From positions 53,955-117,954 of IMG/VR virus record IMGVR_UViG_3300033388_002987: a DNA stretch of 64,000 nucleotides; one strand, 5' to 3'. Below are positions 25,952 to 48,148 of this stretch, piece by piece. Under the pieces are notes generated by a model. The model was given only the letters and a program-made list of their open reading frames with translations. It had not been told where the DNA came from and ran no database searches. The position numbers and the translations under genes are program-made. The DNA comes from a virus. Each line of letters starts with the position of its first letter. The first letter of the stretch is position 1.

Positions 25952-26722
25952 ATGCCAAAACTAAAAACCACAGAAGAGTTCATAGCAGATGCTATAAAAG
26001 TTCACGGAATTACCTATGACTACAGTAATGTATCTTATAGTAATTCTCATACGAAGGTTGACATTATATGTAGCATACATGGTGTATTCAGTATGAAACC
26101 GTGTAACCACACTACCTCAAAGCAAGGGTGTGCTAAGTGTGCTGGTAACATACAGCTAACTACTACTGAGTTTATTGAGAAGGCAGTTGCTGTGCACGGT
26201 AACAAGTACAGTTATGACAAAGTAGAGTATACTACTTCACATAACACAGTGACTATAGAATGTAACGTGCATGGTGATTTTGAGCAGCAAGCGTATGTAC
26301 ATTTACAAGGGCATGGCTGTCACCCGTGTGGTTCTAAAGAAGCAGGTTTAAAAAATCAATATAACCCTGATATATGGACATATAGAGGGTGGGACGAGGC
26401 TGGTAGAAGTTCTAAAAACTTTACTGGGTACTCTATGTATATACTGAGATGTATTGGTAAGGATGAAGAATTTTTTAAAATTGGGAAAACATTTATGCCT
26501 TTAAATAGGCGCTTTTCTGGTCCCACTGCACTGCCTTACACGTGGAGTAGCCTACACAGTATTACAGGTGACTCCTTGTACATAAGTACACTAGAGGAGT
26601 ACCTCCACCGAGAGTTACGCAATTTCAAGTATGTACCTGCAAAACCATTTAACGGATGTAAAGAGTGTTACAATGCAGACATACTTGATAACTACATAAA
26701 ATTAATTGATAAATTTAAATAA
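25952..26722 (+). CDS. putative homing endonuclease: two DUF723-like Zn-binding repeats plus GIY-YIG/T5orf172-like C-terminus
   Basis: Two repeats of TTxEFIxxAxxVHGxxYxY...ICxxHGxF...GCxxC; YILR...FKIGKT...RRF. Confidence 0.75.
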   Translation: MPKLKTTEEFIADAIKVHGITYDYSNVSYSNSHTKVDIICSIHGVFSMKPCNHTTSKQGCAKCAGNIQLTTTEFIEKAVAVHGNKYSYDKVEYTTSHNTVTIECNVHGDFEQQAYVHLQGHGCHPCGSKEAGLKNQYNPDIWTYRGWDEAGRSSKNFTGYSMYILRCIGKDEEFFKIGKTFMPLNRRFSGPTALPYTWSSLHSITGDSLYISTLEEYLHRELRNFKYVPAKPFNGCKECYNADILDNYIKLIDKFK

Positions 26723-28484: not shown

Positions 28485-31400
28485 CTAGCTACCTAATAAA
28501 TAAGTAGTAGGTATCTCGTGCCCTGATGGGCTTACTACTTCCCACATTCGTTCAAATACTTTGAACGGATTATAAGTATTAAGTCCTTTATCAAAGAAAC
28601 TTGCATCAAGTACATCTGCAGTATCACCAGTAACGAACTGTTGGAAAGCAATATCAGCACCTACTCTAGCAGGATTCTCTTTAACAAATTTAGCAACTAC
28701 TTTTTGAATTCTCACAAAGTACTTCACAAAAAACCATGTACCCATAGCATCCCCATATCTAATATGCTTCTCTAAAGGAGCTTCGTAGTTTACGTAATTA
28801 TCAATAGCATTACGCATAGCCTTAGCTCTAATCTTTACATTAACATCTTCAGGTATCTTATCTCTTACCTTCTCAGCTGCTTCGCTAGCTGATAATCCTT
28901 TATTAGCATACTTATTAACTTCCGATGCCAGCTTTTCAGTAGCATACTTCGTTTGTTGTGCATCAATTTCATTGTAATACTGAGCATACCTAAAATAGAA
29001 GTCACTCACTTGAGTGGCTTTTAATAACATATGATAAGGCTTAGTCTTCTGTGTTAAGAACAAGTGCTGAGCAATACTATTTAATGTTTCATTAGGTATT
29101 ACTTTATTACCAATTTCTTGTAACCAATTAGTAACTTTATTATTCTCATTAGCTGTACTAACATCCTCAACTATAGACTGATACAGCCCAGCATCCATCA
29201 ATGGTGCTACTGTATTATTAGCTACGCTCGCTGTAAGCTCACGTATTCTAGCGTCTACATCTCTAGCTCCACCCTTTTTAGCTCTTATTAAATTACCCAA
29301 CTCTCTCTTATCAAGCTCATATGCCTTTAACTCTTTAGCTGCTGTTAGCATTAGCTTAAGCCCTTTAACCGGATGCACTCCAACATATAAAAGTATCTTA
29401 AAGTTTGACCATACATTACCAAGCAGTACTTCAGGTGTCTTAATAACAATATTACCTTTAGCAATTTGCATTGTATCTTGCCATACACTTTCTATATGTC
29501 TTAGTTTCTTTTTATACTTTAATGGAAGGTTATCAAATACTTTAGCTTGTGATAAACTCCAGTCATCTTCTCCAAAAGCAATAGTTAATAATTTCTTATT
29601 AATAATAATCTTATCACTACCAAACTTCTTCGAAGCATAAGCTCTGGTTGCCTTAGGTAATCTAGCCCATAATTCTTCATAACCATTCTTAGGTGTTTTG
29701 ATATCTATATCATAATCATCACCAGTTAAATCACTGCCTTCTATTGTAATAAACTCTTTCTTACTTTTTTCATTGTAGTTATTTTCATAATCATCAAATA
29801 ATATATCAATAGTACTTTCATTATGTCTGGTAGTAGCATCTGCAGTACCCATTGTACCCCATGACTTAGCTAGGTTTTCGGTTCCTCTAGTTTCCATGTC
29901 TAAGAATTGCTTCTTATCAGTTATACTCATAGTAACTCTAAAATCAACCACTTCGCCTTGACTATTATAAATTGGGCTCATACCAAGAGAGTTTCTATCA
30001 GCCTTAAATTGTGCTAATGTAGCTTTAAATAATGTATTAAACTTTGCTCTCTTCTTAATTTTATCCCATTCTTTCACATCAGCGTCAGACTCTGCATGAA
30101 TAATATCCATTAAACTAAGGCCTCTAGATTTCTTATCTTGTAGTCCTAGTGCTCCATTAGCTCTCTTGACAGCAGGTTCACCTGTCTTAAACATACCATA
30201 GTTACGTAAGTTGCCAGGTAAATCTTTTACCTCTTTTAATAATACATACCCTTGCGCTTCAAGGTTAGCTTTCTGGCTCATAGGATGAAACTCAAGTACA
30301 TTATCAGACTTATAAGTTTCTTTGACATAACCCTTAATACGCTTATGCAAGTTACTTCTCATTTCTTCAGTTGATGCTACTTGTAGCCCAATAGATGAGT
30401 CAATAAACCCATTAACGCCTTTCATAACTTGCTTAGTATAAGCATCACGACTTAACGGCTTATCTAATGTAAGTTTATACCTCTCTTTAGCCTTACCCCA
30501 TAACGTTTGAGAGTAATCTATATAACTCTCTCCTGTCATAAAGTCTCTTAAGGTGTTTTTAGCACTATCTGCTGTAGCATCTAAGGCCTTATAGCTAATA
30601 AGTTGGTCTATTTGCTTAATAGTCTCGTCAGTTGCAGATTTTATAGCACCACCAAACCCATCAGCTATATTAGCTGCATTAGTAGCAGTCCCTACACCAG
30701 TTACCATATAAGCCACTTGTGACTCTATATCTGCTAACTGCTGTGGTGATAGCCCTTGGCTTAGCTCATCTATCTTAGTTTGTACCTTACTAGAATCCTT
30801 TAGAAGCTCTAGGAGCTCTTCAGCAGTTAACCCTAGGCTTTGTATGTCTGTACGTAGAACAACGTCTGTAAGTGACTCGTTGTTACCTAGATTAAGTATA
30901 TCATTATTGATACCAATTCCTTCGAACCAATCTTTATCAGATTGTGCTAACACGTCTTCATACGTCTTCTCACGCATCTCATCAACTGCCTTAGTAAGTT
31001 TTAATATAGCATCAGCTAATTGATTGTAAGCCCCCTTCTGTGTTAGAAAGTCTCTACCTATACTTCTAATCATTCCTTGCTCTAATAACCCTACAGCCTC
31101 AAACATAGCGTTAGTAGTCTTAGCATATGACTCTGCTACGGCTCTACTAGCCTTCGCACCCTTAGTCAGCTGATTCATCTTATACACAGTAGGCATTGCT
31201 AATATAATCCTCAGCATGTTATTCATAATGTCATAAACATCTTTAGATAATACTACTGCAAAGTTTCCTGTATTAGTCTTATCATTAGCCTTACCTATTA
31301 GCTTATCCATTTTTTTCTTTAGACTAACAAACTCAGTAAGGTCTTCAGTACTTAGTACACCATTACCTTTAGACTCAATAGTCTCATCCAGTGCTCCTCC

Positions 31401-32783
31401 TAGAGTAATCAATGGCTTAGTAATTTGACGTAGGCTTTTATTAGACATCTCTATAACCTCTTGAGCCTTCTCCATACCTTTATTAATAGTTTCCATAGTC
31501 TGACTACCAGCAACCTTCTCAGTAGCCTGGTAGTTAGCTCGCATAAGCTTGAATACAAGGTCAGCACCTTCAGTAGTAACATCTCCACTACCTTTACGCT
31601 TAGCAAATCCCACTATTCTCTCTATTATATTAAGTAACATCTTACGTAACTTATCAATGACAGTATCACTATCTTTAACAGTATTAGTAGTAACGGCATT
31701 AATGTCTCTCATACCCTCTCTAAACATAGCATTAGTTGTAATAGCAGCCATGAACTCATGCAGTCCATTACCATGAGTGTCGTTGAATATATAATCCCAC
31801 TTATCTTGTGCTTGCTTCTTCTGGTACTCAGTATAAACAACTCCATCATTGATACCTGGTAACAATGTCTCCCAAGTAGACTCTTTAGTAGCCTTAGCAT
31901 ATAAGTCTTTTAGATCTCTCTTGAACGCAATAATATCAACGTCTTTAGCTATGTTTTTACTATTACTCATAACAAAGTCCATAACAGCATGTATTGACTC
32001 ATGCACATACACTTCCTGATTCGTCATTGAAAAATTATTTCTAAACTCAGCTGCAGGCCCATGTAAATCAAGTCTTACTTCAAGGCTGTCATTATTAGGG
32101 TCGTAATGCCCTTGTGCCTCAATCACACTATCCAGTGTACTCCTCTTAAGAGTTACATCTTTATCTTTAAAATCATTAACCATATTTCTAATAGTATTCA
32201 ATGTAGTAGTAAGTAAGTTACTATGTGCCTCATTAAAGTTTTCACCCATATTAGCTTTATCAAGCTCTATGAATGCTTCATTAAGCTTAACAGTCTTATC
32301 AACACTACCATCAGTATCAATATAATACTCTTCAAACTCAAGGTGTGATATAGGCTCTGTAACACCTCTACTTCCAATAGTTATACGTCTAGTAAGCTTT
32401 ACAAGACTCTCACCCTTAGCATTTCGATAGCCATGGGCTATCTCTGCATTAAGTAATTTAGCAAAGTTATCATTACTCTTATTATTATTGAATTGGTCAG
32501 TAAGTAGCTGTACTTCTTTACTTACTTCGATATAAGGTTGCTTATCTTTAGTAAGTGGAATAGCTTGACTGGCATTAGCTCTAATAGAGGCCGTCATGTC
32601 TTTAGCATCAAACACTTCCTGCTCTGATAAGTCTTTAGCTCTGTCTACTACTTGCTCAGCTAGCTCGTAGGCCTTAACTTTAATAGCCGGGCCACCGAGG
32701 TCCGGGCTTGTCTTCTTTAACTCTACTATTGCTCTCTTAGCAATATCATCTACCATTAGCTGCCTTGCTCTACACTTTGCCAT
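28485..32783 (-). CDS. large ejection protein, part 3 of the split virion RNAP locus (N4 gp50 C-terminal-like), with zincin motif
   Basis: 1432 aa; HESIH...HEFMA zincin-like motif; AAGGA RBS; single Cys at residue 4. Confidence 0.7.
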   Translation of the reverse strand: MAKCRARQLMVDDIAKRAIVELKKTSPDLGGPAIKVKAYELAEQVVDRAKDLSEQEVFDAKDMTASIRANASQAIPLTKDKQPYIEVSKEVQLLTDQFNNNKSNDNFAKLLNAEIAHGYRNAKGESLVKLTRRITIGSRGVTEPISHLEFEEYYIDTDGSVDKTVKLNEAFIELDKANMGENFNEAHSNLLTTTLNTIRNMVNDFKDKDVTLKRSTLDSVIEAQGHYDPNNDSLEVRLDLHGPAAEFRNNFSMTNQEVYVHESIHAVMDFVMSNSKNIAKDVDIIAFKRDLKDLYAKATKESTWETLLPGINDGVVYTEYQKKQAQDKWDYIFNDTHGNGLHEFMAAITTNAMFREGMRDINAVTTNTVKDSDTVIDKLRKMLLNIIERIVGFAKRKGSGDVTTEGADLVFKLMRANYQATEKVAGSQTMETINKGMEKAQEVIEMSNKSLRQITKPLITLGGALDETIESKGNGVLSTEDLTEFVSLKKKMDKLIGKANDKTNTGNFAVVLSKDVYDIMNNMLRIILAMPTVYKMNQLTKGAKASRAVAESYAKTTNAMFEAVGLLEQGMIRSIGRDFLTQKGAYNQLADAILKLTKAVDEMREKTYEDVLAQSDKDWFEGIGINNDILNLGNNESLTDVVLRTDIQSLGLTAEELLELLKDSSKVQTKIDELSQGLSPQQLADIESQVAYMVTGVGTATNAANIADGFGGAIKSATDETIKQIDQLISYKALDATADSAKNTLRDFMTGESYIDYSQTLWGKAKERYKLTLDKPLSRDAYTKQVMKGVNGFIDSSIGLQVASTEEMRSNLHKRIKGYVKETYKSDNVLEFHPMSQKANLEAQGYVLLKEVKDLPGNLRNYGMFKTGEPAVKRANGALGLQDKKSRGLSLMDIIHAESDADVKEWDKIKKRAKFNTLFKATLAQFKADRNSLGMSPIYNSQGEVVDFRVTMSITDKKQFLDMETRGTENLAKSWGTMGTADATTRHNESTIDILFDDYENNYNEKSKKEFITIEGSDLTGDDYDIDIKTPKNGYEELWARLPKATRAYASKKFGSDKIIINKKLLTIAFGEDDWSLSQAKVFDNLPLKYKKKLRHIESVWQDTMQIAKGNIVIKTPEVLLGNVWSNFKILLYVGVHPVKGLKLMLTAAKELKAYELDKRELGNLIRAKKGGARDVDARIRELTASVANNTVAPLMDAGLYQSIVEDVSTANENNKVTNWLQEIGNKVIPNETLNSIAQHLFLTQKTKPYHMLLKATQVSDFYFRYAQYYNEIDAQQTKYATEKLASEVNKYANKGLSASEAAEKVRDKIPEDVNVKIRAKAMRNAIDNYVNYEAPLEKHIRYGDAMGTWFFVKYFVRIQKVVAKFVKENPARVGADIAFQQFVTGDTADVLDASFFDKGLNTYNPFKVFERMWEVVSPSGHEIPTTYLLGS

Positions 32784-32791
32784 TGGGTTCC

Positions 32792-35700
32792 TTACTTACA
32801 GTTTTTTATTTTATTAGTTGTTCTAGCCACTTCCCCAGCTATGAACTTATGACTAAACACGTCTGACGCTATGTCACCACTAACAACCTCTCTAACTTTA
32901 TTGCCTTCAGCAATAGCTACATCCTTATCACTAACTGCTTCTAGTCTTACTTTAGGTAACGTAGGCCCATTCATCCAAGATTTTTTAAGTCTCTCAGTCC
33001 ATACAATTCTAGGACCAGTGCCTGTTAATGCCTTTGCGTTGACTTGCTTAATCTCTTTAACATCTTTCTTAACCTGCTCTTGCTCTAAAACCATCGCAGT
33101 AAATGAGTCTACTAAGTAATCATGCATAGTACCTTTACGTTTACCTTGCATTCCTAACATAGTTAGTACAGTATCTATTAACACATCAAGTGCGTTAGTA
33201 AAGTATTCTTTAGGATTAGCAGGTTTTATACTGGCTAGCATTTTAATAACTTTAGGGTTGCTCATACCTTCTGCTAAGAATTCTTCCTTACTCTGCATCC
33301 ATAGTGCATCCATATCTGGGTCTGGTAACATATTAAATACTTCCCAGAATAAATCTTCAACTCTTTTAGTTAACTTGTCTTCAGGGTGTGCCTGCATATA
33401 CGCAACAGACCCAGCGTGTACTAACTCATGAAATCTAACGTACTCAGCATCTTGCTCATTAATGTATTTACTTATAATCTTATAATTTTCATCTGTTAGC
33501 TCTTTAACATCAGCTACTTCTTTTGTTGTTGACGTTGGTTTCAAGTCTTTACTATAATGGCTACTAAGTGCCTCTTTTACAACTTCACCATTAAGGTCTC
33601 CAAGTACTATAGTATTAGTATCCTTAGTGTATTGTCCTAGTATAATCTTACCTAAGTACCCTTCTGTAAACTGTCTAGTAATAAACTCAGGGTCTTCTAC
33701 TATACGTGTTCCCATTACATCCATTATCTTAGCTGAGTACATATCACTCATTTGCTTGTACTGGCCATATGCTGCAGAGTGGAAAGGGTTCCCTTTTCTA
33801 GCTAGGTCAACTGGTGATATATGAAAGTTAGTTATGTCAGATCCTTTATTATCCGACAGTATACCAGAATCCATAGCATTGTCAATTGGTGATACAAACT
33901 CGTTAGGGTATGACTCCGTTGATGACCCTACCACTGGTCTAGGTATAGTAGTCTTTTCCTTAAGCTTAACGTTAGGCTCTTGCCTAGTGTAAGTCTCTCC
34001 CACTCTATCATAATGTGCACCTTCGTAAGCTGCATGCTCAAATCTTATATCCTCATTTAGCAACTCAGTTCTAGCTGTCTCTGACTCATCATGCAGTTTA
34101 ACTAAATCTTGTTGTATACTCTCTACAGTACTAGCTTTATCTTTATCTGATGTACTTTCCTTAACATACTCAGCGTCAACAGCTTTAATGTCTTCTTTAC
34201 TAGCAGCATTAATACTGCTGTTAACACTATTTAATATCTCAGTAACCATACTATACTTAGTAGATACTTGTGCCGTACCTTTATTATATAATTTAGTCCC
34301 TTCAGTAACTTTATCAATAGCAAGTACATTAGCATCATGCACACCAAGCCCCTCAACCTCACTTAATACTAATGACTGTATAGAACCATCTATAAAGTGA
34401 ATTGGCACAACAGCACCAGATGCAAATGATTCAACCATCTTGTATCTCTTAGCTTGCCCACTTAATCTCTTATTATCTGCAAGTCTTACATTAGCTTGGC
34501 CAGACTCTTTAACCCCTTTGAGCAAGTCATAGTTAACTGCCTCGTTACCAAATATCATCATCTTACTTTTAGCATCACCTAATACAGTCTTAATTGCAGG
34601 CAGTGACTCTTCTAACGTCCCAATTATCTCATTAATCTCTGAGTCTTTCAAATGTCTACCAAGTTCTTTTTGTTTATTATCTACAGCTTTATCAAGCTTC
34701 TGTTTAAACAGTCTAAACATCATAGTAAATGAGTTATTTATCTTACGCCCAGCCTCTATATAATCTCCGTATGTCTCAGTAAACGTTTCTTCTAAAGCAG
34801 TACCAACACTAGCTTTAATATTATTACGTATATTATCAGCAAGTACCTCTGGTATTGTATACTTCTTACGTTGAGCTTCTGACATTTCTTGTACTTTCTT
34901 AGCCTCATTTAATGCTAACTGTATAGTAGCTTTACTACCATCTGCAGCTACCCATCCATCTTTAGTATTTTTCATACTGACACCGGAGTCTTTAATTATA
35001 GCTATTACTTGAGCTACATCTTGAGTACTTGAAATATTAGTATATAAACTCTCAATAGCATCATCAGCTATCGTACTTATAATCTTAGGTAGTCCAGAAC
35101 CATAATTAAATACCATAAACGGGTTCTTCATAAAGTTTCTACTAATAGTTTTTATAGCCTCATCTACACCAGTACTTAACGCTAACTCGGTAGCTCTCTT
35201 GTTGGCACGTACGTACCAACTACGTCTATCACCCTTAGGTAGGTTATCCTCAATAGTTTTGGCAATCTTAGGCAGCTTACGCGTCATTACCTCAGCAGGT
35301 GTATTATACGCATCAGTATAGCCGGCTTGCTCAGCCTGTCTACCATAACTAGTATTCTCATTAAAATCAAAGAATACTCCGCCTTTAGCTAGGAAGTTCT
35401 TAACATCTTTAATAATAGGCATTTGCAATATCTTAAGTATAAACCCTGACGTAACTGCATCTGTCTCAATAGGTAACTTAGACTCAAAACCAACTAATGT
35501 TTTATTCTTAGCTTCGTATTTATTAGTAGCTCTTAGCTCGGCAAGCCCACCTATAGTGTGCTCTATATCATGTGACCAGCCATTATCTTGCACCTCTATA
35601 AGTATCTCTAAGTCAGTTTTACCATCAGTAATCATCTTATCAAGTTTGGTCTTAAGTTCACTCCATTCTTTAAGTGCGTTAGCCTTTGACTTCTTATCTA

Positions 35701-38620
35701 TATCAACACCAAACGCCATAGCTAACGCTAACCTATGATCATCCATAAGCTCTTCTGTCACAGTAGCAGCCTCTATAGTAATAGCAAACCTATGTAGCTT
35801 CTTACCTTGAGGATTAAATGTATTAGAGTCTAATATGAATCTACCATTCTTAACAAATTTGTAAGGGAAGTACATCTCTGTCACACCAGACTCCTGCATC
35901 TGCTTGTGCCAATCTTCTAAGAAATCCATATCACTTTCTATAGCAAAGTTCTTACCATTAACACTTGGCTTAATAAGGTCATGTACTGTATTAGGGTCAA
36001 CCCATCCTAGTAACACTCTTAACTGTTGTTTACCTTCTTCAGTCTTTGTCATCTCAAAGTAAGAGTCCATATAACCATCAGTCCATTCCCAGCTAGTAGC
36101 CTCTTGCTTATTAACTGCTTCTACAGTCTTAGTAGCTGTATCATAATGCTTACCAATATCTGAGGAGTTACGTACAGTACGCTCTCTCAACGGTGCAGTA
36201 GTAGAAGGATATCTCATAGAAGTCTCTGTACCAAGTACTTTATTAGCATATCTACTACCAATACTTAACAGTTTATTCTTTCTAGGATTATCAAACCAAT
36301 CGTTAGCACCAGTAAACTTAAAGTGGCCAACACTCACATCAACACCTTCTTGCTCACCAAATATCTCCGATGATTTCTTAACACCTGTCTCTATTAACTT
36401 ATTATCTTCCATAGCAGCAAGTGCAGTAAGTCCTAACTCAGTTTTGAACTTAGCTTCCGTAACTTCTCTATTCTCACCTTCAACATCTTTAATCTTAAGC
36501 CCAAGGTTCTTATATATAATACTACCAATACTATTAGCGGCTGTTGATGTTAATCCATCAATATCCCCAACTCTTTCACGCTCTTCTTTAGTTAAAGAAT
36601 CCTCTACATTCTTACCAAGTAATCTATTTATATCTTCATCAGTCCTTTTACTTGCTCTTAAACTTCCATAGTTAACCATCCAATCATTGATAGCTAATGC
36701 CATTGCAGTAATAACTTCCTTAGGAAGTGTATAGTTACCAGGCTCTCCTTGTAATAGTAACCTCGTAAGAGATTGGTATGCTTCGGACGGTGTATTACTT
36801 GTAACATCTAAGTCAGATATCCATCTTTGATCAAGTCCTTGTTTAACGAATCTTCTTATGTACTTCTCAGTAGTATTAGTAAGCTTCTTAGCACCATCTA
36901 AATACTTAGCTTCTAAACCTTCTCCAACAGTTTGTTTTATAGCTTCAAAACCTTCTCCAAATATATTAGCAACAACATTTAAGTTATTGTATACCTTCTT
37001 AACAGTAAAGAAATCTGAAAGTCTTACAGCTTCAGCATCTTTCTTAAACCTTCTAGCAGGCTTATTTGCTAATAGTCTATCACCAATAGTACCTTCAAGA
37101 CCTAACTCAGAAAGTACCTTATCAGCTCTCTTCTCAAGCTTAATAATTTCTTTACTAGTTTTAATTCGCTCAGTAATAGTCTCGGTAGCTTTTGCATCTT
37201 CTAACCATTTAATATCTTCACGGATAGCAGCTAACTCTTTATTAAGCTCTGCAGTATTTATTGTTGTAGTTATAGGCTCTTTTACCTTAACTTCAGTTAC
37301 TTCCTCAACAGGTGCTTGTGCTTCAGCATCTAGACGCTCTGCTTCAGCTATATCGTCAGCACTATAGTCTTCGTACTTCTCTATACCATCCTTAGTCTTA
37401 GTAATAAAAGCTTCGTCTCTAGCTTTATCCTGAGCATCTTCAGTACCACCAATATCCGCATTATCTTTAGTAGCAGCTTTTACTTTCTCTACTTGAGTAT
37501 TAGGCTTACCTAATCTGTACTTATACGTCTTACCATTTTTAAGTTCAGCTCTTACTTCGTCTAGGAACTTAGTAACTTCAGCTCTTTTCTTAGCAGTCCA
37601 TGGCTTAAGCTCAGCGTGCTCTTTAGCTAATTTATTAACTTTATTTTTAACGGCAACCTTTAACTTAGAAGTATCTATACTAAAAGTATCTTTAAACTTT
37701 GATTCTTTTTTAGGTTTAGTTTTTTCAGGAGTAGTAGTATCTTTTTCTGAAATTTCAGCAACCTTTGGTGCCTGCTCGTCCAACATCTTTAAATTAGCAT
37801 CTAATAGAACATCAAATAGATTATTGAGCTCTTCACCTTTAAATCCTAATATCTGTAATACATTATTAAGAACAACTTCATACATATTACTAAGTCTACT
37901 AATTGGCTTACCAGGAACTACACTCATAAGTTCTTTCATAAATTCTGGGTTTGATAACGCCTCTGCCAGAAACTCATCAACATTAGTTTCCCAATATGTG
38001 CTCTTAAACTTTAACTTATCTTTATTAGTAAGTAGGTAAGTGTAAATATCCTCTATACGCTTAGTAGCTGGCTCGTTTGGGTTAGAGCTCATGTACTCTA
38101 TAGCACCTGCGTGTACAAGCTCATGCAGCAGAAAGTGTGTCCCTCTAGCCTCTTTAATCTGGTTAAATACGTTTTCTACTTCAGCATCCAGCCTACGAGT
38201 CATATCCTCTTCAGTCTGTAACGTACCAACGCCGTCTAGTGTTCCATCAGTAACTTGCTTATAGAAGTCAATAGCTATCTGCTTCTTAACATCCACATCA
38301 ACTACACTAGCAACTTCAACGCCTTTACCAACACTAAATCTGGCAGGGCTAAATTGCTTAATACCAGTACGTATTTGGCCTAAAGTATATGCAACGCTGT
38401 CTGTGAACTTAACCCCAGTAACATCTCTTATAAGACTACCAAAGCCCTCACTAAACTCTTGTAAGCTAGTATCACTAGCAGACTTCCCTGCAGTTTTTAC
38501 TACAAGCTTACCAAACAGTTTTTCAGCTACTTTAGCGTTATTAAGTATTCTTTCAATCTTCACCCTAGCAGCGGGTGTGCCTTGTAGTAGTGCAATAGCC
38601 TCTTTTAGTTGACAAGCCAC
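32792..38620 (-). CDS. N4-like virion RNA polymerase (single-subunit, T7 superfamily) catalytic chain flanked by two zincin-like domains
   Basis: NGRF (T/DxxGR-like), motif A ETDAVTSG, motif B RNFMKNPFMVFNYGSG (RxxxKx7YG), motif C GVHDAN; HELVH...EFLAE occurs twice. Confidence 0.88.
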   Translation of the reverse strand: MACQLKEAIALLQGTPAARVKIERILNNAKVAEKLFGKLVVKTAGKSASDTSLQEFSEGFGSLIRDVTGVKFTDSVAYTLGQIRTGIKQFSPARFSVGKGVEVASVVDVDVKKQIAIDFYKQVTDGTLDGVGTLQTEEDMTRRLDAEVENVFNQIKEARGTHFLLHELVHAGAIEYMSSNPNEPATKRIEDIYTYLLTNKDKLKFKSTYWETNVDEFLAEALSNPEFMKELMSVVPGKPISRLSNMYEVVLNNVLQILGFKGEELNNLFDVLLDANLKMLDEQAPKVAEISEKDTTTPEKTKPKKESKFKDTFSIDTSKLKVAVKNKVNKLAKEHAELKPWTAKKRAEVTKFLDEVRAELKNGKTYKYRLGKPNTQVEKVKAATKDNADIGGTEDAQDKARDEAFITKTKDGIEKYEDYSADDIAEAERLDAEAQAPVEEVTEVKVKEPITTTINTAELNKELAAIREDIKWLEDAKATETITERIKTSKEIIKLEKRADKVLSELGLEGTIGDRLLANKPARRFKKDAEAVRLSDFFTVKKVYNNLNVVANIFGEGFEAIKQTVGEGLEAKYLDGAKKLTNTTEKYIRRFVKQGLDQRWISDLDVTSNTPSEAYQSLTRLLLQGEPGNYTLPKEVITAMALAINDWMVNYGSLRASKRTDEDINRLLGKNVEDSLTKEERERVGDIDGLTSTAANSIGSIIYKNLGLKIKDVEGENREVTEAKFKTELGLTALAAMEDNKLIETGVKKSSEIFGEQEGVDVSVGHFKFTGANDWFDNPRKNKLLSIGSRYANKVLGTETSMRYPSTTAPLRERTVRNSSDIGKHYDTATKTVEAVNKQEATSWEWTDGYMDSYFEMTKTEEGKQQLRVLLGWVDPNTVHDLIKPSVNGKNFAIESDMDFLEDWHKQMQESGVTEMYFPYKFVKNGRFILDSNTFNPQGKKLHRFAITIEAATVTEELMDDHRLALAMAFGVDIDKKSKANALKEWSELKTKLDKMITDGKTDLEILIEVQDNGWSHDIEHTIGGLAELRATNKYEAKNKTLVGFESKLPIETDAVTSGFILKILQMPIIKDVKNFLAKGGVFFDFNENTSYGRQAEQAGYTDAYNTPAEVMTRKLPKIAKTIEDNLPKGDRRSWYVRANKRATELALSTGVDEAIKTISRNFMKNPFMVFNYGSGLPKIISTIADDAIESLYTNISSTQDVAQVIAIIKDSGVSMKNTKDGWVAADGSKATIQLALNEAKKVQEMSEAQRKKYTIPEVLADNIRNNIKASVGTALEETFTETYGDYIEAGRKINNSFTMMFRLFKQKLDKAVDNKQKELGRHLKDSEINEIIGTLEESLPAIKTVLGDAKSKMMIFGNEAVNYDLLKGVKESGQANVRLADNKRLSGQAKRYKMVESFASGAVVPIHFIDGSIQSLVLSEVEGLGVHDANVLAIDKVTEGTKLYNKGTAQVSTKYSMVTEILNSVNSSINAASKEDIKAVDAEYVKESTSDKDKASTVESIQQDLVKLHDESETARTELLNEDIRFEHAAYEGAHYDRVGETYTRQEPNVKLKEKTTIPRPVVGSSTESYPNEFVSPIDNAMDSGILSDNKGSDITNFHISPVDLARKGNPFHSAAYGQYKQMSDMYSAKIMDVMGTRIVEDPEFITRQFTEGYLGKIILGQYTKDTNTIVLGDLNGEVVKEALSSHYSKDLKPTSTTKEVADVKELTDENYKIISKYINEQDAEYVRFHELVHAGSVAYMQAHPEDKLTKRVEDLFWEVFNMLPDPDMDALWMQSKEEFLAEGMSNPKVIKMLASIKPANPKEYFTNALDVLIDTVLTMLGMQGKRKGTMHDYLVDSFTAMVLEQEQVKKDVKEIKQVNAKALTGTGPRIVWTERLKKSWMNGPTLPKVRLEAVSDKDVAIAEGNKVREVVSGDIASDVFSHKFIAGEVARTTNKIKNCK

Positions 38621-38808
38621 TACGAGTTACCTAACAACTTAGACAGCTCTTTCTCTGCAAGTGCTTTGATAATAGAATTGACAGGTTGTTGGACACTATC
38701 ATAGGTACGGCTAGTTCCATTGTGATGCTCTTTAACTATCAATACTCTCTCTTCCAGAGGAAGAGAAGGTGAAACATATAAGTACCCAGGATTTTCTATA
38801 AATGTCAT
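38620..38808 (-). CDS. 62-aa protein wedged within the vRNAP locus
   Basis: TAATG overlap with the upstream gene, TAGTG overlap with the downstream gene; AAGGA RBS. Confidence 0.6.
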   Translation of the reverse strand: MTFIENPGYLYVSPSLPLEERVLIVKEHHNGTSRTYDSVQQPVNSIIKALAEKELSKLLGNS

Positions 38809-41800
38809 TAACAGTCCTTCATGTCTATATTATTTTTAGCTAACAGTTGCTGTAACCCTTTACTAGATTTAACTAGTAACATTACATTATCTCTAATTGT
38901 GGCATTATACTCAGATTCAGTATCTTTCGCAACACTGAGTATTTCGTTAACTGGTTTTGCTCTAGCCTTTTTCTTAGCTTTTTCTATCTTAACATCTAAA
39001 GCATCAAGCTCTTTATTAGTCTCATCCAACTCATCTTGTGTAGCAATAGGGTCAGCCTCCACAGGAGCCTCTTTAGTCTCAACAGGAGTACTTACCTTAG
39101 AAGTTTCTTTTGGAGCCTCCCCTGGTCTAATCATATTCCTTATAGATGTATCCTCAGCACCAGTAGGATCTTCTATAAAGTTGTCTTCAAATCCATATCT
39201 ACTATATAACCGTACAAGACGACTTAAAGTACCTACCTCAGGATCTGCTGTCAAAAGTATATCACTATCACCAAAGTTCTCTATAACCTTGGAAAGCAGT
39301 TTACTTGCAAGGCCCTTACCTCTACTGTCAGCACCTACAAATAGTTTACTCAAAGTAATGTCACCATTATCGCTTTGTACGATGTGTGCTGTGGCATTAC
39401 CACCTATACTGTAAATTGTAGTATCACCTTTTTTAGTGATCTTAATAGCCTCCACAAGAGCCTTCGTATCCTCTTTAGAAGTACTTACCTCAGTATCTTC
39501 TTTTGGAGCCTTCTTGACCTCTTTCTGTGACTTTGGTGACGCAGTCTTACCATTAGCAATTCGCTCAAGTTTATCTAACTCAACTTGCTCTTTCTTCATA
39601 ACCTCTGCAAGATTAGCAACTATTGCCACACCCTTATAAGGTCTACCAGCAAGCATTACTTTAATATCATTAGAAGTATTAACAGCTACAGACCTAGCTG
39701 CAGCCTTCGTATCCTCATCCCAAGTCTTCATTATCTTTATATTAGGGTTAACATCTTTAGCACCAACAACCCAAGGCATACCTTGCTCTACATCCCACTC
39801 TTCAACTGCACTAACAAACGTAGCAATCTTACTACGCTGACTTGCAACAAAGTTATTAATCTTTTCAGTGGCATTAGCATTAGGACCTTTAAGTAGCTGA
39901 TTAGCAAACTGTAAAACCCCAAGGCCAAACCTACCACCACCAATTAGTTTCTCTCTAGTAACATCGTATAACGTACTAACAGATGTCTTCTTAAGCTCAA
40001 GTAAATCAACTTGCATCTGATTTAATTCAGCCATAGCAGCTTCATCCTCAAGCACGCTATTTATATGTTTTAACGAGGCAGACGAGCTACCTATAATCTG
40101 AGCTACTTTAGTATCTAAATCAATATCTTTACTATTAATAATACTATCAAGCTCTTTACTACTAGTAGCAGTAGACAGTGCTGTCAACTGTCTTATCTTA
40201 GCATCCACAGCCTTAAGTCTTAGTGGGCCAGCTCCTGCATCCTTTAACTCTTGACGCATCTCTGTCATAGCATTAATACCAGTAGCAACAGCCTCTAACA
40301 TACCAGGCATATAATCAGTAGTATCACCGCCAGCTTCTCTAGCAACAAGCTCTGCAGTGTAATCCTTTATTTGCTGTACGCCATCGGCGTGCATATTATC
40401 AAAGTCTTTACTAATAGCTTGTAAGCCTTCAAACTGCTTCTCATTAAGGCTCTCTAAGTCTTCTAAAGACTCACCTTCAACAGAGTAAGTAGCCATATCT
40501 GCTTCTTCTAAAGCAATAGCAGATGCTTTATCAACATCTTTAGGTACAGCTCCCCCAGTAGTACTTACATCGTAAGTATCTACATTAAGGTCACCTTGAT
40601 CTCTATTACGTTGCTTGTTAGCTTCATCAATACCATCTAGGTCTGGATTAGCTTTTTTAGCAGCAGTTACTGTGTCGTGGCCTGGTCTTACAGCTTCCTT
40701 AGCTTTAGTAGCTAGGTTTTTAGCTTTGTCAACTGCAGCTTCAGTCTTACCCCCAACTATCTCAGCACCTCTACCTAGTACCTCACCACCACCTTTAAGG
40801 GCAGCACCCATACCGAATCCAATAGCAGCTTGATGTGCAGTCTCAGGATCAGTAACTATATCAAGTACAGACCTCTCACCTTCTTTTTGTGTGGCAATAG
40901 CCTCACTTACAGCTTCAGCTCCCTCTTGTAAGAACTCTCCACCACCTGATTTAGTAATTCTTTTAATAACACCACTCTTAGTGCCATCAGCAGTTTTCTT
41001 TACTATATCACTGATACCAGATTTTATCAGTAACTTCTCTGGCACTAGTACAGCTATCTCGGTAAAGAATGTCTGAGCAAGTTTACCTTTACTCATTGGT
41101 TTATTATTATTCTTTTCATACTCTTCAGCGTAGTTTGATGTTCTAGTAGCAGCAACTACTGCAGGTCCACCTGGAATACCTAGTGACAATATCTCACCAG
41201 CACTACCTGCAAGGATTCTGTCTAGTTGGCTCATACCATGTGCAAGTGACTTAATATAGTCAACAGGGTTATCTGCGTTCTTCCATAACTCAGCAGACTC
41301 TTGCATAGCAGTATTATGCTCATTAATAGTTTCTTCAGATACACCAAACTCTCTTTGAGCTGTAGTAGTATCACGAATACCTTCTATTGTTTTACGTGAA
41401 TCTTCATCTATAAAAATACCTGCTTTACCATCACCACCTAATGACTTCTCAACTTCAGATGCCCAAGCATCATACTTAGCAATATTCTCTTTACCTACCA
41501 GGTTCTCTAACATATTAACAGTATCAGCACCAAATTTAGCTACAGCAGCTTGCGCTATATCAATAGTCTCACCGATTCGGCCTTCGGAATCTGACTTAAT
41601 CAATGATGCATACGCTTCAGTACTTGATGCTTTTGTAGGAGTTAGCGGCATTTTACCAATACTAGTTATTCCATCTACAACTGTATCATCTGGTAGTGAG
41701 TACTTACCACCAATAGTACTTATCACACCTAAGTTTCTACCATAGTTATTACGTGGACTTTTATCAAAAGGATTAGGATTAACTTCTTGGTAACTCTCAA

Positions 41801-42221
41801 CTATTGCAGGCAAGTTACTGTAGGATGTCCCAGCTCCTAATATCTCTTTAGCAGAAGCTGCTTGAGCATTACCAGCAGCAAACACATCTTGCACTGATGC
41901 AGGCCTACCCAATTCAACAGATAATAGTGCTTGTTGTTCTTGGATCCTGTTTACGTTACGTGGGTTATTGAACCAAGATTGGCCCTTTGTAGTTTCGTAT
42001 GTATCTATCCCAAGAGCTCTTGTAGAGCTAGGGTCATCACGTAATGTATATGTGTCTGCATCATAGATATCAGATACAACATCTAGTTTATTACGTTTTT
42101 TAGCAGTTCGTTCTTGTAGTTTCGCAAACTTATCGTCGGCTATAGAAGTGGGATTAATAGCTGCAACTTCTGCATCTATGTTAGATAGGTATTGGTTAAA
42201 GTCAAAATTAGCCACGTACAT
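38808..42221 (-). CDS. large ejection protein, part 1 of the split vRNAP locus, with SNase-like and GNAT domains
   Basis: 1137 aa (GTG at 42215 may be the true start, given RBS spacing); DADT/RALGIDTYE/YGR nuclease motifs; RGKGLA...LYSRYGF GNAT motifs; only Cys is the last residue. Confidence 0.72.
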   Translation of the reverse strand: MYVANFDFNQYLSNIDAEVAAINPTSIADDKFAKLQERTAKKRNKLDVVSDIYDADTYTLRDDPSSTRALGIDTYETTKGQSWFNNPRNVNRIQEQQALLSVELGRPASVQDVFAAGNAQAASAKEILGAGTSYSNLPAIVESYQEVNPNPFDKSPRNNYGRNLGVISTIGGKYSLPDDTVVDGITSIGKMPLTPTKASSTEAYASLIKSDSEGRIGETIDIAQAAVAKFGADTVNMLENLVGKENIAKYDAWASEVEKSLGGDGKAGIFIDEDSRKTIEGIRDTTTAQREFGVSEETINEHNTAMQESAELWKNADNPVDYIKSLAHGMSQLDRILAGSAGEILSLGIPGGPAVVAATRTSNYAEEYEKNNNKPMSKGKLAQTFFTEIAVLVPEKLLIKSGISDIVKKTADGTKSGVIKRITKSGGGEFLQEGAEAVSEAIATQKEGERSVLDIVTDPETAHQAAIGFGMGAALKGGGEVLGRGAEIVGGKTEAAVDKAKNLATKAKEAVRPGHDTVTAAKKANPDLDGIDEANKQRNRDQGDLNVDTYDVSTTGGAVPKDVDKASAIALEEADMATYSVEGESLEDLESLNEKQFEGLQAISKDFDNMHADGVQQIKDYTAELVAREAGGDTTDYMPGMLEAVATGINAMTEMRQELKDAGAGPLRLKAVDAKIRQLTALSTATSSKELDSIINSKDIDLDTKVAQIIGSSSASLKHINSVLEDEAAMAELNQMQVDLLELKKTSVSTLYDVTREKLIGGGRFGLGVLQFANQLLKGPNANATEKINNFVASQRSKIATFVSAVEEWDVEQGMPWVVGAKDVNPNIKIMKTWDEDTKAAARSVAVNTSNDIKVMLAGRPYKGVAIVANLAEVMKKEQVELDKLERIANGKTASPKSQKEVKKAPKEDTEVSTSKEDTKALVEAIKITKKGDTTIYSIGGNATAHIVQSDNGDITLSKLFVGADSRGKGLASKLLSKVIENFGDSDILLTADPEVGTLSRLVRLYSRYGFEDNFIEDPTGAEDTSIRNMIRPGEAPKETSKVSTPVETKEAPVEADPIATQDELDETNKELDALDVKIEKAKKKARAKPVNEILSVAKDTESEYNATIRDNVMLLVKSSKGLQQLLAKNNIDMKDC

Positions 42222-42269: not shown

Positions 42270-43727
42270 CTATGGTGCTAGTGCAGTACCAGCGGCAGTA
42301 GATAGACTAAGGATATCGCCTAGGTCCCAATACCCCTGCTGTGCGTATCTAGCTTTAGCACGTGCAACAAACTTCTTCTTATCAGAAGTATTCATTTTAT
42401 TAATAGTAGATTCATTAGTTACTAAGAACTTATCAACTGCATCCACATCTTCAGCATCTGTGCTAGTAAGTCCTGAATATAGCTCAGTGGCTACACTAAA
42501 CTTACCATTACCACTAGCTTTCTTAGATTGCTTAGTGGCCCATGCCTTTGCAGCATCAACTGTACTAATACCCCTAGGCATTTTAGGAAAGATTTCTCTA
42601 TACCCACTTACAGTCTTCGCATCTCCAATAACGCCAGCTTTGTACTTAGCCATTGCTAATTGCTCGCTGATAGTTGGTCCTTTAGATTTAGGGAATACCT
42701 CATCCATTTTACTAAGTGCATCAAGCTTAGCTGTTCCACTGATATTATTGTTACCCATGATAGCAGCTCTAAGAGCCTTCTCTTGGTCAGCAAGAGGTAT
42801 ATCAGCAGTCCCTGCTTTGACAGCTTTGACTTCTTTAATTAGGTCAGGAACAGTTTCTACTTTACCAACATTGTTAAGTCTATTACTCAACTCACCAAGG
42901 CCAGATTCAGCTAAAGCTTTCTGGTGTGCTTCATCACTTCTAACCTCAGCAGCTTTAACAGCTTCTGGTGAAAGTGGGGTAACTCCTGTACCAACTCTGT
43001 CAGGAGCAACAGGGTTCAACTCATCTCTTACACCTTGCTTATCCTTCTTACCGAATGATGTTCCAAATAAATTATTAGATGCATCACCTAAGAACTGTCC
43101 TACAGTACTAACAGCGTTTGGAACAGTTAATTGATTAAGCATACGTTGGCCAGTAGCATCTATTTCATAAGGCTTTCCAGAATGCACATTATTAATCATA
43201 TTACGAAGCGCGTTAGAACGTTGCTTATGTTGTTGTGAAACTTCACGTGGAGCAACAGGCACCTGCACAGGATTGTTAAACTTATCAAATGCTATAGCGT
43301 AGTCTTCACCTTTCTTAGTAATCTCACTATCCAGCACTTCCTGCTTAGCAGTTAGAGCAGCATTCCGAGCAATGATTGCCTCACGCTCAGCTTTGTTACC
43401 TTTTACAGCTTCTATTCCAGCAGTAGGTTTAGTCTTAACTACACCAGCAAGCGCAGCAGCCAATGCTTTATCACTAGCAACTTTAGTTGCATAAGTATCA
43501 GCAGCTCTACCCTCTTGTGCTTGCTGTATACCAAGTAAGCTTTCAGCTCTTTGGTTAGTAACTACTTGTTGTGCTAGTCTATTCTTCTCTCTTTGCTCAG
43601 CAGCAAGTCTATCTTGAATAGCCCCTACTCCTGAAGTGAATCCAGAAAAACCTCTCTGAGCATTAGCTAAAGCTTGATTAGAGCCTCCAAAGTTAACACT
43701 TACTGGATTCCATCTTGGTTGTGCCAT
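42270..43727 (-). CDS. internal virion/ejection protein (N4 gp51-like position)
   Basis: Ala/Gln/Gly-rich, Cys-free, syntenic upstream of vRNAP. Confidence 0.6.
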   Translation of the reverse strand: MAQPRWNPVSVNFGGSNQALANAQRGFSGFTSGVGAIQDRLAAEQREKNRLAQQVVTNQRAESLLGIQQAQEGRAADTYATKVASDKALAAALAGVVKTKPTAGIEAVKGNKAEREAIIARNAALTAKQEVLDSEITKKGEDYAIAFDKFNNPVQVPVAPREVSQQHKQRSNALRNMINNVHSGKPYEIDATGQRMLNQLTVPNAVSTVGQFLGDASNNLFGTSFGKKDKQGVRDELNPVAPDRVGTGVTPLSPEAVKAAEVRSDEAHQKALAESGLGELSNRLNNVGKVETVPDLIKEVKAVKAGTADIPLADQEKALRAAIMGNNNISGTAKLDALSKMDEVFPKSKGPTISEQLAMAKYKAGVIGDAKTVSGYREIFPKMPRGISTVDAAKAWATKQSKKASGNGKFSVATELYSGLTSTDAEDVDAVDKFLVTNESTINKMNTSDKKKFVARAKARYAQQGYWDLGDILSLSTAAGTALAP

Positions 43728-43729
43728 AA

Positions 43730-44242
43730 TTATCCTACCTTAGACGTATCTACATATTTTCTAGTAGTAGCAGCTTTAGAAGCAGCAATCTGATCAGCTG
43801 TCATAGCTCCACCACCAAGTGCTAACCCAACATCTGCAGCATTCTGAATCTGTTGATTAATAAGTTGTCCCTGTGTCCCAATATTTCTATTAGCAAGTCC
43901 TTTTTCAAAGTCAAATTGATCTTCTGCAAGTCCAAGAGTTTTATATCCTGTATATGCACTAGCAAGAGAACCAAGTCCTTGTGCTACGTCAAGCGCATCT
44001 CCTAACCCAAATCCGCCACCAGCATCTTGTGCCCCATATCCTTCATTAACAACAGACTGCAAACCACCAGAGCCTTTTAAATTGGTAAATGATTGATTTA
44101 CACCAGCTTGCTCCCCAGGTGTAAGTTTCATGAATGCGGCCTGATCTAATCCTTGGCTACCTAAGAACTGTCCAAAATCAGTACTATTATCCCCAAATCC
44201 GAACATGCCTAAGCCTCTAGATGTTAATGTATTCTCTGCCAT
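43730..44242 (-). CDS. small internal virion/ejection protein (N4 gp52-like position)
   Basis: Gly/Ala-rich, Cys-free; AGGAG RBS; synteny. Confidence 0.6.
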   Translation of the reverse strand: MAENTLTSRGLGMFGFGDNSTDFGQFLGSQGLDQAAFMKLTPGEQAGVNQSFTNLKGSGGLQSVVNEGYGAQDAGGGFGLGDALDVAQGLGSLASAYTGYKTLGLAEDQFDFEKGLANRNIGTQGQLINQQIQNAADVGLALGGGAMTADQIAASKAATTRKYVDTSKVG

Positions 44243-46583: not shown

Positions 46584-47052
46584 TAGTAAACCCTAATTGG
46601 TTATATAGCTTTGTGAATTTAGTAGTCATATCACTTATCTTAATTACTAATGGAGTTCCGTGATTATGATAGTTACGTATGCTATACCCTACAGTAAGAG
46701 ACTTTAAATAGACAGCATCATCTGTATGAGGTACTACAAGTATTTTGTGGGAAGGAAACTGTGTAAACACTTCGTAAAACATTGCAACAGAAGCTATAGG
46801 ATCACCCCCCCAAATACTTATACCTTCTCCATGTTTCTCAATAATCGTTGTATATATAAACCCAACAAGTTTACCATCATTCATAACTTTATATGCATAC
46901 CCATTCTCAATACTATTAATCATCCTATTCTTATATGTTAACTCATCCATATCATAAGTCACATCAGAAATATACGTGTAGTGTATATCTACATCACTTA
47001 TCTGTGCAGGAGCAACAGTATACTCTTTACCGTACTTAGTAGTATAAACCAT
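46576..47052 (-). CDS. GNAT-like acyltransferase (putative)
   Basis: TVAPAQISDV (beta1/alpha1), YKVMNDGKLVGFIY (beta2-3), C-terminal KLYNQLGF; lacks a clear R/QxxGxG CoA-binding motif. Confidence 0.55.
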   Translation of the reverse strand: MVYTTKYGKEYTVAPAQISDVDIHYTYISDVTYDMDELTYKNRMINSIENGYAYKVMNDGKLVGFIYTTIIEKHGEGISIWGGDPIASVAMFYEVFTQFPSHKILVVPHTDDAVYLKSLTVGYSIRNYHNHGTPLVIKISDMTTKFTKLYNQLGFTSE

Positions 47053-47924
47053 TATTGAGCCTTACCGTTCTTATGAAGTACACACGAGCCATAGAACCCA
47101 CCTAGTCCAGAGGCAACACATAAAACACTAGTTTGCACTCTCACATCATCAATAGCCATACAAAGTTCTAGTACAGCACTTACACCTTGTGCGTGTCCTA
47201 CCTCATCTTTATAATACAGAACTTCTTTACCTCGAACTAGCTCTTCCTCTGCTGCATTATTAGAGGCTGTTCTAGTGCCATGTGGCTTAACTACATCACA
47301 TGGTGTACTAACAAGAGCATAACCTTCTACTGTAGTATTAAACGGGTTACGGTCATACCTATACGCCCATTTAGTATCTGTCACTTCTAGAGGTGTTACT
47401 GTATTGCTGAGCACTATAATAGCTATGCCATCTGCTACAGTAATAGGTATACCATGCTCTTTAAATATTCGCAATGTATTAAAGCTTGTGCGCTCTTCTG
47501 CAATAATAATAACTTCCTCACAGACACCGTCATTTAAAAGTCTTTGAGCTTCATAAATACTATGCATACTGCTAGCACATGTATTACTGTTTATATTAGC
47601 GTACACAACTAATTCATTATTTTCCATTTCACCTATCCACTGGTGCATACTATAAGCTGTAGACTCCTTAATAATTATAGAAGGTTTCGTGTAAGTAACA
47701 GTGCCTACATAGCGACTATTTACCGAAACTATATCTCTACTCTCTGATTGGTGAATATTAAATCCTCCAGCATACAGCACAGCTGTAGGCTTTGATAAAG
47801 TTATCTGGTTTATTAGATTTAAGTACTGCTTAGTAGTGAAATCTACCCTGTTTATATTATCAATCTCTAAGTGATCACCACAATTTATTGTAGCCTTTAT
47901 ATACTCGTAATGTTTGATATACAT
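47052..47924 (-). CDS. minimal beta-ketoacyl-ACP synthase (FabB/FabF-like thiolase fold)
   Basis: NTCASS (catalytic Cys), ADGIAIIVL (GEGA-like), PHGTRT (His), KDEVGHAQG (Lys/His), SGLGG C-terminal motif. Confidence 0.88.
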   Translation of the reverse strand: MYIKHYEYIKATINCGDHLEIDNINRVDFTTKQYLNLINQITLSKPTAVLYAGGFNIHQSESRDIVSVNSRYVGTVTYTKPSIIIKESTAYSMHQWIGEMENNELVVYANINSNTCASSMHSIYEAQRLLNDGVCEEVIIIAEERTSFNTLRIFKEHGIPITVADGIAIIVLSNTVTPLEVTDTKWAYRYDRNPFNTTVEGYALVSTPCDVVKPHGTRTASNNAAEEELVRGKEVLYYKDEVGHAQGVSAVLELCMAIDDVRVQTSVLCVASGLGGFYGSCVLHKNGKAQ

Positions 47925-48148
47925 TTATCTACCATCTCTTTAATAGTAATATTTGAAAAATCTACTGTTGCGAATGGGTCAGTCTTAATAGGGATATCTC
48001 CAAAGTAGTTATATTTGTCATCCAGCTCCATGAACAGTACAGTAACCCCAAAGCTATCAAGGTTAGCATCGGTTAATATGTTAGCTAAGGTAACTCTATT
48101 ACCTTTTTCTTCTCGAATCTTAGAGTTAATAAACTCTAAAACTTCCAT
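47897..48148 (-). CDS. acyl carrier protein
   Basis: 83 aa; DANLDSFGVTVLFMELDDKY matches the ACP phosphopantetheine site consensus DLGxDSLDxxELxxxLEExF; ends TIKEMVDKC (helix IV-like). Confidence 0.82.
   Translation of the reverse strand: MEVLEFINSKIREEKGNRVTLANILTDANLDSFGVTVLFMELDDKYNYFGDIPIKTDPFATVDFSNITIKEMVDKCISNITSI

Follow-up and report, generated by a model that had tools for sequence, protein, structure and literature searches.

The virion RNA polymerase (vRNAP) of well-described N4-like phages is one long chain: gp50 of N4 and gp71 of the Pseudomonas phage DEV are Cys-free polypeptides of ~3,400-3,500 amino acids (aa), encoded beside the equally Cys-free gp51 and gp52 (gp72 and gp73 in DEV). 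According to the N4 structure paper of 2026, the vRNAP consists of folded units on flexible linkers and must pass the ~35 Å tail, possibly by unfolding (PMC13434306). The DEV paper reported suppression of cysteine across 191 Schitoviridae ejection operons and cited a periplasm rationale for it (PMC11445570). Here, we analysed the vRNAP locus in a stretch of 64,000 nt of viral DNA (IMG/VR record IMGVR_UViG_3300033388_002987, positions 53,955 to 117,954), hereafter called the window. Its RNA polymerase (RNAP) domain and C-terminal domain (CTD) are homologous to those of N4 and DEV, and the gene order is the same, but the vRNAP is divided into three chains with cysteines at the broken ends. Instead of a single polypeptide of ~3,500 aa, the locus has three large open reading frames (ORFs) and an ORF of 62 aa, and the breaks are conserved in relatives. 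In addition, the window locus goes beyond N4 and DEV by an extra GNAT domain and by duplicated HExxH modules (X1 and X2). Judged from its sequence, the window phage is distantly N4-like (Schitoviridae-like) and has a vRNAP made as three pieces.

A split vRNAP has been described in culture. The Alteromonas N4-like phages AltAD45-P1 to P4, with genomes of ~100 kb (Bacteriophage 2013, PMC3821669), have their vRNAP split over two genes; PCR verified the split, and gels showed the two polypeptides. From its cysteines, the authors concluded that the protein is unlikely to be injected (PMC3821669). AltAD45-P1, for which bands of 270 and 175 kDa are published, grows on A. macleodii AD45. These phages differ from the window in having two pieces rather than three, and the authors did not remark on the position of the cysteines, which in AltAD45-P1 are the sole one of piece 1, three residues from its end in the tail H-C-K-Q, and the sole one of piece 2, at residue 4 after T-I. 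A second relevant case is cyanopodophage A4 (Anabaena phage A-4L), which belongs to another family (Saffermanviridae) and for which no RNA polymerase in the particle is described. It has two adjacent giant ejection/internal proteins with cysteines at their facing ends, as in the window pieces: gp27 (1717 aa, sole Cys1715) and gp26 (1114 aa, sole Cys5) according to the GenBank record. In the A4 pre-ejectosome as resolved by cryo-electron microscopy, gp27 Cys1715 and gp26 Cys5 form a disulfide, which the paper treats as a local stabiliser and from which it draws no general rule (PNAS 2025, PMC12002296). Hidden Markov models of the N-terminal module of the window CTD and of the X modules, the only modules used, gave no match to A4 gp26 or gp27 at E 1. 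A different kind of division is that of nrdA in Aeromonas phage Aeh1, a gene reportedly split by an inserted gene, the halves of which are said to reassemble non-covalently. It resembles the vRNAP described here as an essential large protein made in consecutive cooperating pieces, and the window and one relative (L005, see below) also have small ORFs in one break. However, most of the vRNAP breaks have no intervening gene, and for split genes of the Aeh1 type neither covalent joining of the pieces nor a Cys signature at their termini is known to us.

The three large ORFs of the window lie on the minus strand and encode 1137, 1942 and 1432 aa (parts 1, 2 and 3; 4,511 aa in total); the junction of parts 1 and 2 is called break A and that of parts 2 and 3 break B. 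Together they contain four cysteines, none of them internal; each lies at most four residues from a junction-facing end. The sole cysteine of part 1 is its last residue, Cys1137 (codon 38811-38813); part 2 has only Cys3 (codon 38612-38614) and the penultimate Cys1941 (codon 32798-32800); and part 3 has only Cys4 (codon 32772-32774). This agrees in every position with a preliminary description of this DNA, which also stated rightly that the neighbouring gp51-like and gp52-like proteins (485 and 170 aa) contain none and that the N4 vRNAP is Cys-free; in the GenBank record of N4, gp50, gp51 and gp52 all lack cysteine. In a rough set of ORFs from all of the window, Cys makes up 0.81% of residues; at that frequency ~37 cysteines would be expected in 4,511 aa. 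Most plus-strand replication genes of the window have ~1-2% Cys or more. The chance that four randomly placed cysteines all fall in the 16 end positions is (16/4511)^4, roughly 2e-10.

The preliminary description also gave the layout of the locus in three parts, which stands, but it overlooked the GTG start of part 2 and the ORF of 62 aa between parts 1 and 2. Translated from GTG, part 2 begins M-A-C-Q-L-K-E-A, which is confirmed by relatives that have the same beginning at an ATG. The 62-aa ORF occupies exactly the space left by parts 1 and 2, to which it is coupled through overlapping stop and start codons (TAATG and TAGTG). Neither Pfam nor PHROG gave a match for it, and none of the related loci has a homologue. 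A look-up of sequencing runs for 32500-39000 listed none, nor any RNA record, and the breaks are therefore those of the assembly. The true start of part 1 is probably the GTG at 42215, two codons after the first ATG, which would shorten the protein to 1135 aa; this start matches the public gene call and yields the beginning M-A-N-F-D-F seen in relatives. The choice of the part 1 start does not affect the Cys picture.

A search with part 2 against 5.8 billion proteins returned 11 relatives with 27-60% identity. In all 11, the sole cysteine is within the last 1-5 residues, joined by one at residue 3 where the protein starts with M-A-C or M-G-C. For comparison at the level of loci, we collected the contigs of ten part 2 relatives, two more distant pieces and three IMG/VR loci, giving 15 metagenomic relatives (L001-L015; 22-60% identity) to be tallied with the window. 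Cysteine is present on both sides of all 24 breaks in this set, and the 65,795 aa contain only three internal cysteines and none at an outer terminus. With AltAD45-P1 and A4 added, the rule holds for 26 of 26 breaks in 18 genomes. A first piece has one cysteine (C-terminal), a middle piece two (one at each end) and a last piece one (N-terminal). Across the 26 breaks, the upstream cysteine is followed by 0-4 residues and the downstream one is at residue 3-5. Lysine or arginine lies within two residues of the upstream cysteine in 21 of the breaks, and the downstream piece has a small second residue (A, S, G, T or P) in 23, from which its initiator methionine is probably removed.

The position of the break varies. 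The layout is NTD/RNAP/CTD (NTD, N-terminal domain; slashes mark breaks) in L001-L003, NTD/RNAP-CTD in L014 and L015, and NTD-RNAP/CTD in six loci; the break between the GNAT domain and X1 is found in the window and L005, and in L012 and L013 RNAP and CTD are separated by an additional middle piece with Cys-tipped ends. The genes at a break are separated by -11 to +11 nt, except for 187 nt in the window, 611 nt in L005 and 4.6 kb in L015. Since the rule applies at differing positions and spacings, an artefact of a single junction at the nucleotide level does not account for it. In L015 (L015:5341-10004), a first piece ending in Cys and an RNAP-CTD piece starting with Cys are separated by three genes, including that of a 1343-aa protein with 16 cysteines, which indicates that partner pieces need not be adjacent genes. 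In L005, the last piece has no cysteine from its called start; translated from an ATG further upstream, which has a good ribosome-binding site, it begins M-S-C-K. One candidate break, between the ORFs of 644 and 1463 aa in L013 (L013:1900-2040), was excluded from the tally; there the frame changes at an A-run and an out-of-frame Cys precedes the stop, and it is most likely a frameshift or assembly error rather than a true split. This case shows that the Cys rule can help to separate real breaks from frameshifts. Regarding break A, L005 holds two small ORFs (132 and 74 aa) there, which are unrelated to the 62-aa ORF of the window and have no homologues among the other loci, and L012 and L013 have no small ORF at this position. 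Such ORFs may be variable fillers or remnants of the cause of the split.

Where the pieces are fused, the cysteines are absent. Relatives with the NTD fused to RNAP have no Cys at the fusion, and N4 gp50 and the full-length vRNAP representatives of 3661, 3817 and 4409 aa contain none. A phmmer search with residues 1-600 of part 3 against 1.84 billion representatives gave 47 matches, of which 34 have a single cysteine at residue 3-10, one has two and 12 have none; 35 of the 36 cysteines in these 70,841 aa are within the first 13 residues. The column of Cys1941 of part 2 is invariant in our alignments A1 and A4, and Cys4 of part 3 is invariant in two alignments, of 18 and 14 sequences. Thus the conservation expected by the preliminary description, terminal cysteines in split relatives and none in fused ones, is what the loci display. 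The flanks are also conserved and differ between the two breaks: K-D-C-stop followed by M-A-C-Q-L-K-E-A at break A, and K-x-C-K-stop followed by M-A-x-C at break B. From these sequences, the flanks could provide pairing specificity.

The terminal cysteines might be seen as neutral leftovers of one ancestral split, or as a by-product of start and stop contexts. Many RNAP/CTD breaks may indeed share one origin, and all four Cys codons of the window are TGT. We give almost no credence to this explanation, however, since the cysteines are kept down to 19-27% identity in proteins otherwise purged of Cys, and the pattern recurs at several non-homologous break positions, with varied spacings, and in the unrelated proteins of A4. 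At background frequency, the probability of the pattern in the 24 breaks is ~1e-63, a figure uncorrected for phylogeny. Re-joining by a split intein was considered and rejected: no Hint or intein family was found by Pfam in any piece, and with only 0-4 residues after the upstream Cys and 2-4 before the downstream one there is no room for intein halves. Joining of the native-ligation type was likewise rejected, since there is no intein sequence.

From the sequence pattern and by analogy with A4, a disulfide-joined, head-to-tail chain is the best-supported reading of the four cysteines. In this reading, the N4-type vRNAP of the window is an ejected protein of the 'beads-on-a-string' kind that is made as three polypeptides; like all Schitoviridae ejection proteins, these are kept free of cysteine, apart from the one at each broken end. 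During assembly the pieces would dock end to end; in an oxidising environment the facing cysteines would then close as two inter-chain disulfides, Cys1137 of part 1 with Cys3 of part 2 and Cys1941 of part 2 with Cys4 of part 3. The product would be a single, nearly unbranched chain with side stubs of 0-4 residues, which could enter the particle and leave it through the tail as the single-chain N4 protein does, and the reducing cytoplasm could reopen the links. The extreme terminal placement of the cysteines fits the need for minimal stubs in a narrow channel, and the one-two-one counts per piece point to a linear chain rather than a lattice. We consider it fairly probable that the pieces are docked, joined by disulfides and ejected as one chain that can be reduced in the cytoplasm. 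The preliminary description had proposed such a re-joining. Its pairing of each C-terminal Cys with the next N-terminal one is strongly supported by the 26 breaks, the counts per piece, the Cys-free outer termini, the Cys-free fused forms and the A4 disulfide; bond formation in the window phage, threading as one chain and reductive release are steps that we infer.

Several observations weigh against the disulfide chain. Any disulfide in a split-vRNAP phage is so far deduced from sequence and analogy. Virions assemble in a cytoplasm that is reducing, and closure of the bond therefore has to wait for release or take place where it is protected; and ejection proteins are thought to avoid cysteine in order to escape periplasmic oxidation, so the chain must be shielded by the ejection tunnel. 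The breaks are not phylogenetically independent, as many RNAP/CTD breaks may come from one ancient split. Of the 12 Cys-free proteins among the 47 part 3 homologues, three are fused forms (3661-4409 aa) and most of the remainder fragments, whereas P0049 and P0056 are full-size pieces and possible exceptions to the rule. Finally, the Cys-free 62-aa ORF would break the rule if it were a fourth piece.

Alternatively, the disulfides may form and only stabilise a packed internal protein body in the capsid, like a static rivet, with the pieces ejected separately or the bond irrelevant to threading. The A4 bond is described in this way, as stabilising a helix inserted in a cleft of the pre-ejectosome ring (PMC12002296), and threading is itself an inferred part of the chain model. 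However, a rivet between folded domains would not require cysteines so close to the ends (0-4 residues before the C-terminus, residue 3-5 at the N-terminus), and the counts per piece give a linear chain rather than a lattice. We regard a purely static role as unlikely.

A literature search found no paper stating the break-end Cys rule. Suppression of cysteine and one structural disulfide have already been published; the rule for split vRNAPs appears to be unpublished. The coordinates of the pieces, their neighbours and the motifs discussed below are listed in Table 1.

Table 1. Features of the split vRNAP locus in the window (positions are those of the window).
Feature	Position	Strand	Description
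Part 1	38808-42221	minus	N-terminal piece of split vRNAP, 1137 aa, tail M-K-D-C-stop
Part 2	32792-38620	minus	Middle piece, 1942 aa, GTG start; module X1, RNA polymerase domain and module X2
Part 3	28485-32783	minus	C-terminal-domain piece, 1432 aa
Orphan ORF	38620-38808	minus	62 aa, Cys-free, between parts 1 and 2
gp51-like ejection protein	42270-43727	minus	485 aa, no Cys
gp52-like ejection protein	43730-44242	minus	170 aa, no Cys
GNAT acetyltransferase domain	39183-39410	minus	Part 1 residues 938-1013; Pfam Acetyltransf_10
Module X1 motif HELVH	38111-38125	minus	Part 2 residues 166-170
Module X2 motif HELVH	33416-33430	minus	Part 2 residues 1731-1735
Zincin-like module motif HESIH	31989-32003	minus	Part 3 residues 261-265

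The identity of the pieces was examined by profile and structure comparisons. Part 2 matches phrog_2206 (virion RNA polymerase) with E 5e-99 over profile positions 785-2268, and part 3 matches the same family with E 2e-109 over positions 2254-3379. A Pfam scan of part 2 at E 0.01 returned no family; its precomputed Pfam tags are vRNAP_dom_2 and N4_RNAP_helical, which together with phrog_2206 identify a T7-like single-subunit RNAP domain homologous to the mini-vRNAP of N4. The profile of alignment A2 (part 3) matches the N4 vRNAP structures 9pnr (E 5e-34) and 11fw (E 3e-40), and that of alignment A1 (part 2) found no solved structure by sequence. A tblastn search with the vRNAP reaches 315 N4-like phage records, and known phages are at most about 25% identical to the window pieces; megablast matched the locus to nothing in the phage collection. 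Part 1 is homologous to the N-terminal regions of the larger, fused first pieces of relatives, and its homologues P0062 and P0063 also have one cysteine each, near the C-terminus. The gp52-like protein matches phrog_2646 (E 9e-12) and, weakly, N4 gp52 by BLASTP (E 8e-4). The gp51-like protein is 26-33% identical by BLASTP to the gene at the same position in three relatives, and is called gp51-like from its position beside the gp52-like gene. Homology and the gene order beside the gp51-like and gp52-like genes suggest that virions contain the pieces and eject them into the host. Elsewhere in the window there are a block of replication and nucleotide-metabolism genes and a portal of the SU10 type.

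Upstream of the gp52-like gene lies a gene for a 762-aa protein (44295-46583, minus; phrog_2220), the sole cysteine of which is 13 residues from the C-terminus. The gene at this position in L004 encodes a protein that ends in Cys, has a second Cys and shows no detectable similarity to it; the proteins at this position in the other loci have scattered cysteines with no consistent pattern.

Of the three HExxH modules in the window, X1 and X2 belong to part 2 and are paralogous (BLASTP E 3e-24), and the third opens part 3. In the module of part 3, residues H261, E262, H265 and E343 are invariant in the alignments. The AlphaFold model of part 3 residues 1-450 has a mean pLDDT of 71 and places Cys4 in the first turn of a confident helix (residues 3-25; block pLDDT ~90). 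Foldseek with this N-terminal model found nothing at E 0.001. By VIA-align, model residues 157-429 align to residues 2374-2592 of N4 gp50, the start of its C2 subdomain, with Z 10.8 and a root-mean-square deviation of 4.1 Å over 187 aligned residues, and the profile alignment agrees with this placement. The next-best alignments are to zincin proteases, among them anthrax lethal factor with its catalytic domain (Z ~8). N4's own motif in this region is degenerate. The predicted module of part 3 may be an active metallopeptidase on the ejected chain. The C1 subdomain of N4 carries an HExxH motif (PMC13434306), and X2 is likely its counterpart; tentatively, break B lies near the boundary of C1 and C2 in the C-terminal domain of N4. 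The model of the C-terminal module of part 2 was too poor for use (mean pLDDT 44.9), and a predicted complex between residues 1-600 of part 3 and residues 1560-1942 of part 2 scored 0.29 against a mark of 0.32, which counts as evidence neither way.

The proximity of these modules to the breaks bears on another proposal of the preliminary description, that the cysteines are zinc clasps. In such a clasp, two terminal cysteines and the histidines of a nearby HExxH module would bind zinc and hold the ends together. Each break of the window is indeed beside such a motif, with X1 after break A, X2 before break B and the part 3 module after it, and the predicted fold of the last is zincin-like (Z ~8 to anthrax lethal factor). 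However, there is one cysteine per terminus in all 26 breaks and no CxxC, which cannot build a zinc site. Moreover, at the NTD/RNAP breaks of L001, L002, L014 and L015, the nearest HExxH is many hundreds of residues away or is missing from both pieces; fused forms have the motif but no cysteine; and the A4 pieces lack HExxH, yet their cysteines form a disulfide. With single cysteines at each end and some breaks far from any HExxH, a metal clasp seems very unlikely to us.

The remaining proposal of the preliminary description was acylation. In this case, the GNAT domain or an ACP/KS-like module would lipidate or acylate the terminal cysteines, and the pieces would so be anchored in membranes. 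GNAT is the only domain match in part 1 (Pfam Acetyltransf_10, E 5e-5, just over the curated cut-off), an ACP/KS/GNAT-like trio was noted at 46576-48148, and the vRNAP of N4 is membrane-associated. By the gene tables, however, L005 is the only one of L004-L015 with a GNAT domain, and all of them keep the Cys pairs. The trio (minus strand), the third ORF of which encodes 83 aa, has no homologue in 18 related loci, and two of its ORFs, 47052-47924 (290 aa) and 46576-47052 (158 aa), match no Pfam family at E 0.001. Since both GNAT and the trio are missing from nearly all relatives that keep the cysteines, and acylation gives no account of the Cys-free outer termini or of the loss of Cys on fusion, we consider it highly improbable. 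The GNAT domain in part 1 is an accessory cargo domain.

Other Cys-tipped pieces also have additional enzyme domains. The middle piece of L013 (L013:6374-9481) matches AAA_19, AAA_30 and UvrD_C_2 helicase families, the first piece of L015 (L015:2-5344) has a PIF1-like helicase, and the first piece of L014 (L014:4344-10001) has Peptidase_M15_3 and cpYpsA domains. These extra enzymes suggest modular cargo on the chain. We raise, as a possibility that we ourselves hold somewhat doubtful, that Cys-tipped ends are a general plug-in coupling for phage protein injection, by which a Cys-free protein with one Cys at each joined end could be inserted as a link of the chain, and that the device arose in unrelated podophages such as A4.

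Two further observations concern genes outside the vRNAP. T5orf172/MUG113 domains, which are common in mobile or nuclease-like phage genes, are encoded at 49338-50114 (minus), in the structural block, and at 25952-26722 (plus), adjoining a helicase; in L005, a gene of this kind directly follows the vRNAP. In addition, a 457-aa ORF at 4360-5733 (plus) covers a family A DNA polymerase domain only in part.

How a polymerase of 3,500 residues leaves the particle through a channel of ~35 Å is a question for N4-like phages, and split vRNAPs sharpen it, because separate pieces still need to be packaged together and delivered in order. One conserved Cys pair per break offers a simple answer, namely that the string is covalently restored. 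The disulfide chain would overturn the published conclusion that a split vRNAP with cysteines is not injected. The plug-in coupling, if true, would explain the added helicase (L013 and L015), peptidase-like (L014) and GNAT (window) cargo. If the break-end rule is right, it would serve in annotation, both to distinguish genuine breaks from sequencing frameshifts and to recognise ejected cargo; it would also be a natural example of redox-reversible protein concatenation, and possibly a handle by which foreign cargo could be loaded into phage particles.

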